From: Escherichia phage vB_Eco_F25
Sequence record: OP870144.1
Length of the DNA stretch: 64,000 bases
Reading direction: 5' to 3' (one strand)
The translations under genes were made by a program, and so were the position numbers. Shown one piece after another: positions 17,990 to 24,829 of this stretch. Under the pieces are notes generated by a model, which saw only the letters and a program-made list of their open reading frames with translations, did no database searches and was not told the DNA's origin. The stretch's first letter is position 1; each line of letters starts with the position of its first letter.

Positions 17990-20077
17990 TTATCCTTGAA
18001 CGAACTTGTAAGGCATGTTTGCAATATCTATGCAAGACGCAATAATTCCAAGAGATGATTCTACTTTCTGTTTAACATTTGATGAAACAAATGATGCAAA
18101 GTCAACTCTATCTTCTATATCACCTGTCATTGTAACCAATTCACCAGTTTCCATTAAATGGTCTCCGTCATAGATTACCGATTCGGTGAGTTCTTCTGTG
18201 GTCATAACTTCAGCTTGAATGAGTTTTGTATTATTAGATGTTGTTCCGTCATTATTAGAAGCATCAGTTATTTTATTAACTTTGACCATCAATCCGCGCG
18301 GTAGAATAACTTCAGCTTCTGTTGCTATTCCGAGACTTCCTGGATATACAACATTAACTTTATGAGCTCCATCAATTGCCCATCCTATTTGAACTTTAAC
18401 GTATTCAGGATTTTCTTTATACGCTCTTATTTCGCTTGGATTAATAGTTATTCCTTCTTCATTTTTATCAACTGTCAATTCATTACGAGCTTCTGGTTCT
18501 AAAAGACCAATACCAGCATGTGTAATTCCAAAACGTCCAAAAATGATAGGAGTTAAAGAAGTAGATACAAAATTTCTGAAATAGAACACTTTATTTTTAA
18601 CTAGTGCTTCGTATATAGGAGCAGTCATGCTTTGAGCACGATAAACTGTAATGCCTTCTGGTATACGGTCACCATTTTCAAAAGCTGAATCTAAGTTATT
18701 TATAGCAGATTCAATTTCTTTTTCACTCATTACATCATATCGTTCTGGATTGTAACGACCCAAAAGAAGATTATTGATGTCAGTATATCCTGAACCACAA
18801 TACTCTCTAATGCCGCGCTTTTGTGATGGAGTATATTTAGAACCATCACGGGCAATAGTAATATCAATCATTGGACCTGCACCAATTCCAGAAAAACTGT
18901 AAATCATTCGTTTGAGGAATTTAGTTTTTGCTGCGTTCCAGGAATTTTTAGTTATTTCTTCCCAGACTTCATCTGGTTGTCCTTTACGATTTTTATTATG
19001 ATTAGCAAGCCATTTATCTTTATAATCTTCAAAGAATTGATTTACAGCTGCTGCGTATTTCTCTAAACATTTTATTGAAGTAGTTGGTTCATTTTTAATT
19101 GCATTAAAAATTACTTCTTTAATTTTTTCTGAAACTTCATTAACCTCACTTTTTGAAAAGAATTTATAGTCATAGTGAAGTTCATCTGCGGTTCCTTCGG
19201 CAATAATTTTTGCTGCCTTAGTTTTAGAAGCTAATGAATTAATTCCAAGCTTCATTTCTTCTGCTTCGGGAATTAAAGGAGCTGTAGCAGGTTTATTGAA
19301 ATTAGCTGCGGTAGATTCATATTTCTGGAATAATTCGCTTTCAAATCTAGAAGATTCTAATGACTGACTTTGCGCAATTGCTCTACGGGAAATTTTAACT
19401 TTAACGATTACAGCTTGGTCAGAACGTTTATCATTTTCTTGTGCAATAGATGCTGCAATTGCCTCATTTTTAGTTACTTGGGCTCCAGTATCTTTATTGA
19501 TATAAACATCACCGACTTTTGATTCAACTTTAGTAAAGAGCTCGGTACTAATTTCCGGAACTCCTGGAATGTCTTCTAGTGATACATTTTTGCGATGTAT
19601 AAGAATATATGCGTACTTTTTATCATAATCCCAGAGTTCCTTAAGAAGGACGTATCTACCACCTGAACGACTACGGATAAGTCTATCAGCAATAACTTGA
19701 ATTTGTCGAGCTTGGCCAGCAGTTTTAGACTTAAGAATACGAAGCATACAAGCATCAATTTTATATTGACGCATTGTTTGCATTGCAACAGTAAAAACTG
19801 AATTGATATAATTAATTGGGCTTGGACCAAGACCTTTTAATTTAGCAATTGAACCTTTAGCAGTTAATGTAAAAGGAACAATATGCATCATTTTATCGCC
19901 CATCTTTAAATCGCGATTAGTATCACCTCCAGATGTATAGGTACATAAACGAAAGCCTGGTTGTTCAATTGCATCATCAACATGAACTGAAAAAATTTGT
20001 GGTATTTTCTTCTTTGGATTTAAGTTTGTAATCGGAAGAGTAGTATCTTCGTCAAATAATTCTGTAATGAGTTCCAT
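17990..20077 (-). CDS. alt: Alt ADP-ribosyltransferase (virion-packaged, modifies host RNA polymerase)
   Basis: 695-aa ORF from second ATG (GAGG RBS 5 nt upstream); sequence MELITELFDEDTTLPITNLNPKKKIPQIFSVHVDD… recognised; late promoter TATAAATA on - strand at 20101-20108. Confidence 0.92.
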   Translation of the reverse strand: MELITELFDEDTTLPITNLNPKKKIPQIFSVHVDDAIEQPGFRLCTYTSGGDTNRDLKMGDKMMHIVPFTLTAKGSIAKLKGLGPSPINYINSVFTVAMQTMRQYKIDACMLRILKSKTAGQARQIQVIADRLIRSRSGGRYVLLKELWDYDKKYAYILIHRKNVSLEDIPGVPEISTELFTKVESKVGDVYINKDTGAQVTKNEAIAASIAQENDKRSDQAVIVKVKISRRAIAQSQSLESSRFESELFQKYESTAANFNKPATAPLIPEAEEMKLGINSLASKTKAAKIIAEGTADELHYDYKFFSKSEVNEVSEKIKEVIFNAIKNEPTTSIKCLEKYAAAVNQFFEDYKDKWLANHNKNRKGQPDEVWEEITKNSWNAAKTKFLKRMIYSFSGIGAGPMIDITIARDGSKYTPSQKRGIREYCGSGYTDINNLLLGRYNPERYDVMSEKEIESAINNLDSAFENGDRIPEGITVYRAQSMTAPIYEALVKNKVFYFRNFVSTSLTPIIFGRFGITHAGIGLLEPEARNELTVDKNEEGITINPSEIRAYKENPEYVKVQIGWAIDGAHKVNVVYPGSLGIATEAEVILPRGLMVKVNKITDASNNDGTTSNNTKLIQAEVMTTEELTESVIYDGDHLMETGELVTMTGDIEDRVDFASFVSSNVKQKVESSLGIIASCIDIANMPYKFVQG

Positions 20078-20100
20078 CATATCCTCTCTAGTGTTTATTC

Positions 20101-20129: not shown

Positions 20130-20318
20130 TTAGTAATCTAGTGGTAAGAGAGTACGATATATTTCAAACTTTGGTCCTTTTTCATAGGCATCAAATGTTT
20201 CTGTAAATTTATTATAAGCGTATGCATCTACAAATTCGAGAATGACTTGTGATACAGAAGTAGAAACATCTCCACCTTCTTTTTGAGCAATGACAATTGT
20301 TTCTAAGTAAGCTTTCAT
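20130..20318 (-). CDS. Hypothetical 62-aa protein, translationally coupled to DNA ligase
   Basis: ORF start overlaps gene 30 stop by 4 nt (ATGA). Confidence 0.5.
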   Translation of the reverse strand: MKAYLETIVIAQKEGGDVSTSVSQVILEFVDAYAYNKFTETFDAYEKGPKFEIYRTLLPLDY

Positions 20319-21778: not shown

Positions 21779-22044
21779 TGTTCATCCTTTAGAGTTTGGT
21801 TTACAGCTCTATTATAAATCAATTCATCATTAAGCTCAGTCAAAGACCTATGGTACGTGGTTCTAACTTTATTTCCTTGCATCCAGTGCTTGACGTAAAT
21901 AAAACCTTGCTCTACACATTTTTTAAAAATTCGTTCGTCTTTTTGAGCTCGGAATTCTGGATTGCATCTAAAAAATTGATTTACGTGACCGTAATCACGT
22001 GTAGTATTACCTTCATTTTCATAAATAGTGTGAACGACAAACAT
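21775..22044 (-). CDS. Hypothetical protein (T4 30.1 position)
   Basis: 89-aa ORF overlapping neighbours by 4 nt each side. Confidence 0.6.
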   Translation of the reverse strand: MFVVHTIYENEGNTTRDYGHVNQFFRCNPEFRAQKDERIFKKCVEQGFIYVKHWMQGNKVRTTYHRSLTELNDELIYNRAVNQTLKDEQ

Positions 22045-22886
22045 TAGAATGCTCCTTGGAAAATATTATCACCACTAGTAGGTCTATTATACAAATACTC
22101 TATGCCACCAGGTTTAATATAGTTCCATGTATGAAATGGATGCACATGATATGGATGTGTATAATATGGATGGTATGGATTTAATCCAGGAGTTCTCCAG
22201 GTAGTATTCCAACGAAAAGAATCGTTTTTAATCATCTTTTCAATTACATCTTTTATAGCTTTTTCACTATCAAAACTTTCTTTATTTTCCTTCGATGGAA
22301 AAAGCTTATTCTCTACATCATTCCATGTATAAACTCGCTGAGCGGTTTTTGGAATACTGTCACGCTCCCCTCGAGCCATCCAATAAACAGGAACATTTAA
22401 TATTTCACTCGCATGATCGCAGTGGTGAGCGAGATCGTCAATATAACAAATTACGTTATATTTCTCTTTTGCCTTTTTGAACAACTCTTCTTTTGAAGAA
22501 TCATGACCACACATCAATACTTCTGAGAAGGCACCAGGAAAAAGAGCATTCAAATTAAATTGACGATTCAGCAGAGCGTCAATAGAATCACCCAATGCTG
22601 TAACAGCTACAAAATTATAATCTTCTTTTAATTTGTTAATTACGCACAGGGCATCTTTATATGGAGACAAATAGCGAATAAAATCTGAACGATTATACTT
22701 TTCGATTAATTTAACACCGAGTTCTTCATCGCAATTAAAGAGCTTACCAGGAGAAATAAATTTTTCGTCCTGAATCATTTTTAAAATATGTTCCAACGGA
22801 AGATTATATTTTTGGGCAAAATAAGGAAGGCCCGATTGCCAGCTTAAACACACCCCGTCAATATCAGTCAAAATAGTAGGCTTCAT
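22044..22886 (-). CDS. HAD-superfamily-like hydrolase with His/Pro/Tyr-rich C-terminal tail (T4 30.2 position)
   Basis: 280-aa ORF; N-terminal LTDIDGV resembles HAD motif I (DxDx[T/V]); C-terminus NPYHPYYTHPYHVHPFHTW is a low-complexity H/P/Y repeat. Confidence 0.6.
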   Translation of the reverse strand: MKPTILTDIDGVCLSWQSGLPYFAQKYNLPLEHILKMIQDEKFISPGKLFNCDEELGVKLIEKYNRSDFIRYLSPYKDALCVINKLKEDYNFVAVTALGDSIDALLNRQFNLNALFPGAFSEVLMCGHDSSKEELFKKAKEKYNVICYIDDLAHHCDHASEILNVPVYWMARGERDSIPKTAQRVYTWNDVENKLFPSKENKESFDSEKAIKDVIEKMIKNDSFRWNTTWRTPGLNPYHPYYTHPYHVHPFHTWNYIKPGGIEYLYNRPTSGDNIFQGAF

Positions 22887-23347
22887 AGAGAGTCTCTTAA
22901 TAGGTTTAACACATCAATAAATTCAGCTTCGGTTAGTATTGTATCATCTTTTGTTAGACCACTAGCCATGCTGTGCTTCAAAACTTTTCCTTTCGAGGCT
23001 TGTAATGCATCACGAAAACCCCTGTTTTGGATCGCTGCTTCAAAATATGCATTTGTGTATAATTCTTTCCATGCTGGAGAGTATCTTGAAAATGGAACTC
23101 CAAGCCAGAACAACGTGCCACGGTCCTGAGCTCTAGCATAAGACCTTCCAGCTTGTTGGGCGGCAAGCCCGGATAACCCAAATATACGTCTTTGCTGTTC
23201 AACATTTTTCACCTTACATCCTTGGAGGAATCCTTCGAGACCTCCAAATTGGATACCATCCATAACAAAAGGCCATTGGGCGAAATTACTTAATGCACAT
23301 GATGGCCATCTAAAATTGCTTCTAATCTCTAGCTCAGACATTTTCAA
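22883..23347 (-). CDS. NADAR/YbiA-like domain protein (T4 30.3 position)
   Basis: 154-aa ORF; segment LSNFAQWPFVMDGIQFGGLEGFLQGCK resembles the conserved core of YbiA/NADAR (DUF1768) proteins as I recall it. Confidence 0.55.
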   Translation of the reverse strand: MKMSELEIRSNFRWPSCALSNFAQWPFVMDGIQFGGLEGFLQGCKVKNVEQQRRIFGLSGLAAQQAGRSYARAQDRGTLFWLGVPFSRYSPAWKELYTNAYFEAAIQNRGFRDALQASKGKVLKHSMASGLTKDDTILTEAEFIDVLNLLRDSL

Positions 23348-23540
23348 TACTTATAATTTCAACATCAGCCCAATGACCATAGCAAGGAAGACGAAATTCA
23401 ATTGGCCAGTTAGGGTCCTTTTCTAATATAATAGACTTAACTTGCGGTTCTTCATGTTCATCGGTATACGGACCTTTATATGTTACTTTATATGTGACCT
23501 TAATGTACTGAATTCCAAAAATCTTATTAATTATATTCAT
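23334..23540 (-). CDS. Hypothetical protein (68 aa)
   Basis: ORF with AAGGAA RBS; overlaps upstream ORF end. Confidence 0.5.
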   Translation of the reverse strand: MNIINKIFGIQYIKVTYKVTYKGPYTDEHEEPQVKSIILEKDPNWPIEFRLPCYGHWADVEIISIENV

Positions 23541-23635
23541 ACTAATTCCTTTAATCCATAGATAGGAGATAATTCATCGCCCATACGAAGGTCTTCATTT
23601 CCATCTACCCAGGAAACAATATAAGCCTCTTTTAT

Positions 23636-23734
23636 TTAAATACCACTCCATTTAAATGGAGGTAGAACCTTAGAAATTAATCCAGGTATACCAACTCCCT
23701 TTAATTCAACAGTTTGACCTAAAAAGAATTTCAT
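23636..23734 (-). CDS. Small ORF (32 aa), translationally coupled
   Basis: Manual translation MKFFLGQTVELKGVGIPGLISKVLPPFKWSGI; ATG overlaps the stop of the upstream 95-aa ORF (TAATG). Confidence 0.3.
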   Translation of the reverse strand: MKFFLGQTVELKGVGIPGLISKVLPPFKWSGI

Positions 23735-24021
23735 TAGAACCTCATCTGAAAGCCATGTGATTTAACATTACCGCCGCCAATATCAGAAATATTAATTTCA
23801 CGCGCAATTGAAGGGTCAATGTCAATTTCACGATTGAGTTTAGTGATAGCTAAAGTATCGCGGCCATTTACAGTACGGAACTCTAAAGGGCAGACTATAT
23901 TAACATAGTTTTTAATCGATTCACTAGTAGGTTGCAAATGAGCAGGAAGGTCTTTAGGCGCCTTTGAGAAAACCACTTCACAGAAATTTTTACGGGTATC
24001 AAAATAAGTAGTCATAAACAT
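23734..24021 (-). CDS. Hypothetical protein (95 aa)
   Basis: ORF in co-oriented early block preceded by GC hairpin at 24038-24053. Confidence 0.55.
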   Translation of the reverse strand: MFMTTYFDTRKNFCEVVFSKAPKDLPAHLQPTSESIKNYVNIVCPLEFRTVNGRDTLAITKLNREIDIDPSIAREINISDIGGGNVKSHGFQMRF

Positions 24022-24062
24022 AGTATTTTCCTCAGTAAGGGGCCGAAGCCCCTCATTTTATT

Positions 24063-24496: not shown

Positions 24497-24829
24497 TTAT
24501 TTTACTACTTTCCAATGTTGCATGTCAAGTTTACCAACTTTTTTCATCTTCTCAATTAAGCGTTCGGCACGTTGGCGGGCTGTAACATAATACCATTCAC
24601 CTAATTCATTTTGTTCAATTTTTCCAACGATTACTGTATTCAATTCATAAATCCAGCCAGTAAAGAAATTATGAACTTGGATTGTAAAGGTGAAATCTGT
24701 TCCCATACCTTCTGTTGTTTCTACTTCAATAATATCACCTTCAACTGCCATTAAGAACCACATAGTTTCATCATATTTACCATTGAAGCATTTAGTTTTA
24801 ACCGCAGCGTTCAGATTAATCGTTTTCAT
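24497..24829 (-). CDS. Hypothetical protein (110 aa)
   Basis: ORF with early promoter (24857-24886) upstream. Confidence 0.6.
   Translation of the reverse strand: MKTINLNAAVKTKCFNGKYDETMWFLMAVEGDIIEVETTEGMGTDFTFTIQVHNFFTGWIYELNTVIVGKIEQNELGEWYYVTARQRAERLIEKMKKVGKLDMQHWKVVK

Follow-up and report, generated by a model that had tools for sequence, protein, structure and literature searches.

Gene 30.3 of Escherichia phage vB_Eco_F25 is very probably adfN, a minimal NADAR-superfamily ADP-ribosylglycohydrolase acting against DarTG1

NADAR proteins reverse the guanine ADP-ribosylation written by DarT1, and a histidine typical of the phage members was remarked on when this activity was described (Schuller et al., 2023; PMC11543638). 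A study published in Toxins in 2024 used the name 'gp30.3 proteins' for the phage NADARs; in it, T4 NADAR hydrolyzed G-ADPr in vitro, did not hydrolyze T-ADPr, and gave uninfected E. coli no protection from DarT1 (PMC11125620). Later work found that T4 NADAR acts weakly on RNA G-ADPr, at a level markedly below that of the E. coli C7 NADAR, and the enzymes listed in later work as removing C-ADPr do not include the phage NADAR. Johannesman et al. (Nat Commun, 2025; PMC11825919) renamed T4 gene 30.3 adfN (anti-DarT factor NADAR) and found AdfN to be both necessary and sufficient against DarTG1. After deletion of adfN, T4 and T2 no longer formed plaques on DarTG1 hosts, RB69 was rescued by ectopic expression of the gene, and purified T4 AdfN removed ADP-ribose from DNA (PMC11825919). 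The protein did not counter DarTG2, was fully effective only in T-even infection, where it may need another phage protein, and barely rescued T5 or Bas25 (PMC11825919). The function of T4 gp30.3 is already established, and the role of the gene described here is thus not new.

The window analyzed in this study is a stretch of 64,000 nucleotides from Escherichia phage vB_Eco_F25 (OP870144.1). The region between positions 20300 and 25200 is ∼97% identical to many T4-like phages and represents a T4-like (Tequatrovirus) genome segment, in which the genes follow the T4 order 30 (ligase), 30.1, 30.2, 30.3, 30.4, and on to 30.7. An open reading frame at 22883..23347 on the minus strand had been singled out in a first-pass annotation made from the sequence alone. 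This frame is present and is a real gene, since its product matches Pfam PF08010 (Phage_30_3) with an E-value of 5.1e-70 (234 bits, gathering score 36) over the full length of the profile (positions 1-138 of 138) and has homologs in 1510 phage records by tblastn, far beyond what chance would give. The protein also matches phrog_652, is 100% identical to the copy of Shigella phage ESh17, and shares 150 of 152 residues (99%) with T4 gp30.3 (NP_049816). Both substitutions relative to T4 are conservative, the window protein having R107 in place of K and M125 in place of I, and M125 is the consensus residue of the family in a 49-sequence alignment. The length of 154 aa reported earlier is probably not the true one, however, as it follows the mechanical ORF list in starting at TTG 23347. 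Two codons further inside lies ATG 23341, from which a protein of 152 aa beginning MSELEIR would be made. This ATG is the likely start of adfN, because the T4 ortholog is annotated with 152 aa and the published numbering of E36 and K43 fits only the 152-aa form. The coordinates of the gene and of the features discussed below are listed in Table 1.

Table 1. Positions of adfN, its sequence features and neighboring elements in the window.
Feature	Position	Strand	Description
adfN / gene 30.3 CDS	22883..23341	(-)	152 aa plus TGA stop (22883..22885); likely start ATG 23341..23339; based on ORF list, sequence, T4 gp30.3 identity and PF08010
NADAR core motif LSNFAQWPFVMDGIQFGGLEGFLQGCK	23213..23293	(-)	residues 17-43; stretch named in the first-pass annotation; family profile aligns to YbiA residues 29-82 (2b3w, E=0.0056)
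E36, catalytic glutamate	23234..23236	(-)	codon GAA; invariant in 49 family members
K43, catalytic / ADP-ribose-contacting lysine	23213..23215	(-)	codon AAG; at least 90% conserved among 49 family members
H123	22973..22975	(-)	codon CAC; invariant in the 49-sequence alignment; last beta-strand (120-123 in the model); marks gp30.3-type NADARs
C-terminal helix, residues 138-151	22889..22930	(-)	intact; ORF open to residue 152; helix in the AlphaFold2 model
Gene 30.3' frame	22978..23205	(-)	75 aa, +1 frame inside adfN
Gene 30.4	23334..23540	(-)	68 aa; upstream neighbor of 30.3; phrog_2042 (E=6e-34), T4 annotation
Gene 30.2	22044..22886	(-)	280 aa; downstream of 30.3; HAD-like (perhaps NT5C-like) phosphatase core at ∼residues 1-200 and variable His/Pro/Tyr-rich tail
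gp30.2 tail	22047..22290	(-)	His/Pro/Tyr-rich (NPYHPYYTHPYHVHPFHTW...)
Gene 30.5 region	∼23541..23735	(-)	stop at ∼23636-23638
Hairpin (AGGGGCCGAAGCCCCT)	24038..24053		GC-rich; between 30.7 and 30.6
Promoter candidate	24499..24528	(-)	sigma-70-like, near consensus; TTGACA-18-TAAAAT, 11/12 matches; just upstream of 30.7
Alt ADP-ribosyltransferase homolog	17990..20080	(-)	696 aa

The resemblance to the YbiA/NADAR family had been proposed from the conserved core, and it was borne out by comparison of profiles and predicted structure. When searched by itself, the window protein gave no PF08719 (NADAR) match at E<=1 in Pfam, no match in NCBIfam, none to the DarG models of PADLOC and nothing significant among PDB sequences with phmmer, so that it is linked to the NADAR superfamily by transitive matches, by profiles and by its predicted fold. 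For this purpose we relied on an alignment of 49 full-length gp30.3 family members, which is the basis of the conservation counts, the profile and the structural model. PF08719 is matched by 18 of these 49 members, the best with an E-value of 1.5e-7, and the family profile run against the PDB found E. coli YbiA (2b3w) across the motif region (Table 1). The AlphaFold2 model built from the alignment has a pLDDT of 92.9 and a pTM of 0.88, and the top three PDB matches of this model in Foldseek are exactly the three NADAR structures, with YbiA among them. Together, these data support membership of the window protein in the NADAR superfamily, with a predicted NADAR fold.

The comparison of profiles and predicted structure with NADAR/YbiA, suggested earlier as a check, thus returned a NADAR link, and it also showed the catalytic residues to be in place. 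The Glu and Lys of the E..FQ..K motif are present in the window protein as E36 and K43, and in the family-profile alignment to 2b3w they lie opposite the Glu and Lys of YbiA. In T4 AdfN, the E36A exchange abolishes activity in vitro; in vivo, rescue is weakened by this exchange and likewise by K43A (PMC11825919). The residue in the last strand distinguishes the branches of the superfamily: YbiA has Glu there, DarG1 has Asp, and phage NADARs have His (PMC11125620, PMC11543638). The C-terminal helix is lost in the RB69 allele, which is frameshifted and DarTG1-sensitive, and both the RB69 truncation and a C-terminal truncation mutant of T4 AdfN have lower activity (PMC11825919).

The first-pass annotation had considered the protein a plausible phage counter-defense factor that reverses the guanine ADP-ribosylation made by DarT. 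Precisely this has been demonstrated for the 99%-identical T4 protein, in vitro (PMC11125620) and by deletion, complementation and the E36A and K43A exchanges (PMC11825919). We therefore consider it very probable that the window gene is adfN (T4 gene 30.3), encoding a minimal single-domain ADP-ribosylglycohydrolase of the NADAR superfamily that acts against DarTG1. Enzymatic activity, guanine specificity and the anti-DarTG1 phenotype come from the literature on the T4 protein, and we infer them for the window allele from sequence identity; with R107 and M125 as the only differences, this allele would be expected to behave like T4 AdfN. According to this model, DarT1 would ADP-ribosylate guanines of the phage DNA when a T4-like phage infects a DarTG1 cell, and replication would be blocked. 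AdfN would then hydrolyze the N-glycosidic bond between guanine and ADP-ribose with the help of E36, K43 and the phage-type H123, unmodified guanine would be restored, and replication could proceed. In this way, the phage would bring along its own orphan antitoxin of the DarG1 type. The simple picture of a free-standing antitoxin is nevertheless incomplete, since AdfN-T4 does not neutralize DarT1 in uninfected E. coli, and T5 and Bas25 are barely rescued by it.

The neighboring gene product gp30.2 had been called a HAD-like hydrolase; in keeping with this, all four HAD catalytic motifs are found in it. The protein is 95% identical to T4 gp30.2. Motifs I-IV correspond to D8-I-D10-G-V, T96, K132 and D150-D151 in an alignment of 33 homologs; apart from T96, which is nearly invariant, these residues (D8, D10, K132, D150 and D151) do not vary. 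While gp30.2 of the window alone gave no Pfam match above threshold, PF00702 was matched by 8 of the 33 homologs (best 3.5e-4) and NT5C by 4 of them (best 1.2e-4), and the gp30.2 profile retrieved a 5'(3')-deoxyribonucleotidase (2jao) from the PDB with an E-value of 0.017. These profile matches make 'HAD-like' a reasonable designation for gp30.2, with an NT5C-like phosphatase as our best guess. The last ∼80 residues of gp30.2 are variable and are replaced or absent in many homologs, although the pattern GIEYL.N.PT recurs near the C-terminus in many of those that keep the tail. Compared with T4, the tail in the window has a 2-aa insertion and several substitutions.

The HAD-like gene had been placed upstream of the NADAR gene, which is incorrect: on the coding minus strand it lies downstream. 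It had further been argued that the 4-nt overlap of the two genes indicates translational coupling and a functional pair. The overlap itself is real, with the TGA of 30.3 and the ATG of 30.2 sharing the sequence ATGA, but it is not distinctive, as all junctions from 30.4 to gene 30 overlap. The TGA of 30.4 sits 8 nt inside 30.3 (ATGTCTGA), 30.2 and 30.1 overlap by 1 nt, and 30.1 and gene 30 by 4 nt. In a linkage test, 80 viral loci with gp30.3 relatives were searched with a gp30.2 profile over 6 kb on each side. A 30.2 homolog was found within this distance in 19 of the 80 loci; 30.3 and 30.2 were directly juxtaposed only in the 13 close relatives (at least 84% identity) that carry 30.2 and in one other locus. 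Among the divergent loci, 6 of 66 have a 30.2 homolog within 6 kb, and as five of these six also carry a ligase, 30.2 appears to travel with gene 30 and not with 30.3. The proposed functional pair of NADAR and HAD-like protein is thus not backed by conserved linkage, and overlaps are the norm along this string of genes.

These data bear directly on the idea that gp30.2 and gp30.3 form an obligate two-enzyme module. In such a module, gp30.2 would either supply the T-even-specific function on which AdfN depends in vivo or act on ADP-ribose after its release or on a phosphorylated intermediate. The overlapping stop and start codons, the four HAD motifs and the wide occurrence of both genes in T4-like phages, with 1510 records for 30.3 and 1452 for 30.2 and a nearly identical distribution over genera, are consistent with this idea, as are the adjoining position of the two genes in RB69-like loci, where rescue works, and the need of AdfN-T4 for T-even infection and possibly for another phage protein (PMC11825919). 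However, the coupling is generic, the linkage data tie 30.2 to gene 30, and the similar genus counts, on which the judgment of co-occurrence at genome level was based, are confounded by common descent within the Straboviridae. Moreover, purified AdfN-T4 needs no partner for its activity in vitro, and expression of adfN by itself is enough for complementation (PMC11825919). An obligate module is for these reasons very unlikely. A role of gp30.2 as a T-even-specific helper, which might remove a phosphorylated by-product, recycle ADP-ribose or bring AdfN to the phage DNA under replication, beside the ligase, seems just as improbable, but if true it would account for the restriction of AdfN-T4 action to T-even infection.

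The main substrate of the enzyme could differ from the lesion made by DarT1 and be another ADP-ribosylated nucleic acid, either RNA carrying ADP-ribosylated guanosine or DNA with lesions made by other guanine-specific ART toxins of the pierisin/ScARP-like or YarT-like type. The products of several writers are open to NADARs, and T4 NADAR hydrolyzes ScARP-made G-ADPr on DNA and also on RNA (PMC11125620 and later work). Yet the activity of T4 NADAR on RNA is markedly weaker than that of the E. coli C7 NADAR, no further in vivo target is known, and the loss of plaquing on DarTG1 upon adfN deletion is complete (PMC11825919), which makes a different main substrate unlikely. A housekeeping N-glycosidase of the YbiA type that clears reactive intermediates of the riboflavin pathway, or an accessory enzyme of NAD salvage, in either case with no part in evading defense, is extremely improbable. 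It is true that YbiA is a top structural match and that some homologs carry the JGI label 'YbiA (DUF1768)'. The glutamate in the last strand that defines YbiA is replaced by an invariant His, however, no riboflavin or NAD-salvage genes lie nearby, and the experimental phenotype is specific for DarTG1 (PMC11825919), so that published genetics effectively refute this explanation.

Several further observations were made in the surrounding region. Inside adfN lies a +1-frame ORF corresponding to 30.3' of T4, which is annotated there as 'internal translation in a different reading frame'. Of 14 close relatives, among them alleles of ∼85% identity, 13 keep this frame open, but it is not conserved across divergent homologs, whose longest open stretch has a median of 47 codons; we found no good evidence for 30.3' as a real gene. 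In gene 30.5, the CAA that T4 has as codon 33 reads TAA in the window, which cuts the 65-aa T4 ORF to 32 aa and explains why no ORF of at least 40 aa was listed between 30.4 and 30.6. A scan for promoters and terminators yielded, besides a hairpin past the ligase region, one promoter candidate in front of 30.7; the 21 promoters found were no better than the 22.8 expected from shuffled sequence. The candidate upstream of 30.7 is possibly the early promoter for transcription of 30.7 through gene 30. Another hairpin, located between 30.7 and 30.6, differs from T4 in one loop base. On the same strand as the NADAR gene and 2.8 kb downstream of it, the window encodes a homolog of the ADP-ribosyltransferase Alt. 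Overall, it is 71% identical to T4 Alt and mosaic, with residues 1 to ∼246 and the last ∼100 residues nearly identical and a far more diverged center, which suggests that the central part may have been replaced by recombination. A link between the NADAR gene and the phage's own Alt would be speculation.

Taken together, the window gene represents a phage-carried orphan antitoxin that would erase a defensive DNA modification, a role established for the T4 protein in papers from 2023 to 2026. The present analysis is confirmatory: the family assignment of the first-pass annotation proved correct, its start codon and order of genes were amended, and the pairing of 30.3 with 30.2 was shown to lack conserved linkage.

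Among the described systems, T4 AdfN is the closest counterpart. It likewise has 152 aa, occupies the same place between 30.4 and 30.2 upstream of the DNA ligase gene, and shares E36, K43, H123 and the C-terminal helix with the window protein. The NADARs of the DarG1 type (BC4488 family), such as G. lovleyi NADAR (8bat) and E. coli C7 NADAR, are only ∼15% identical to the phage protein, have Asp where the latter has His123, and carry extra N-terminal elements, whereas the phage protein is the bare core without them. DarG1 is encoded beside DarT1 and neutralizes it in uninfected cells, while AdfN-T4 is an orphan and does not. In the window, gp30.3 has no DarT neighbor, its adjoining genes being 30.4 and 30.2. 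With no adjacent DarT, His123 in place of Asp and no PADLOC match, the window protein is not a DarG1 component of a DarTG1 system; it would work like DarG1, but as a member of an orphan phage branch. Members of the YbiA family, represented by E. coli YbiA (2b3w) and P. nicotianae NADAR (8bau), show 17-21% identity to the phage protein and differ from it in that their last strand carries a catalytic Glu instead of His, and YbiA itself is a housekeeping N-glycosidase with a role in riboflavin metabolism. Finally, AdfN-Bas32 and AdfN-Bas60, the NADARs of T5-like and Vequintavirinae phages, resemble AdfN-T4 in being phage-borne, directed against DarTG1 and guanine-specific (PMC11825919). In contrast to AdfN-T4, they stem from other NADAR branches through independent acquisition, need no T-even infection and neutralize DarT1 in uninfected cells (PMC11825919).
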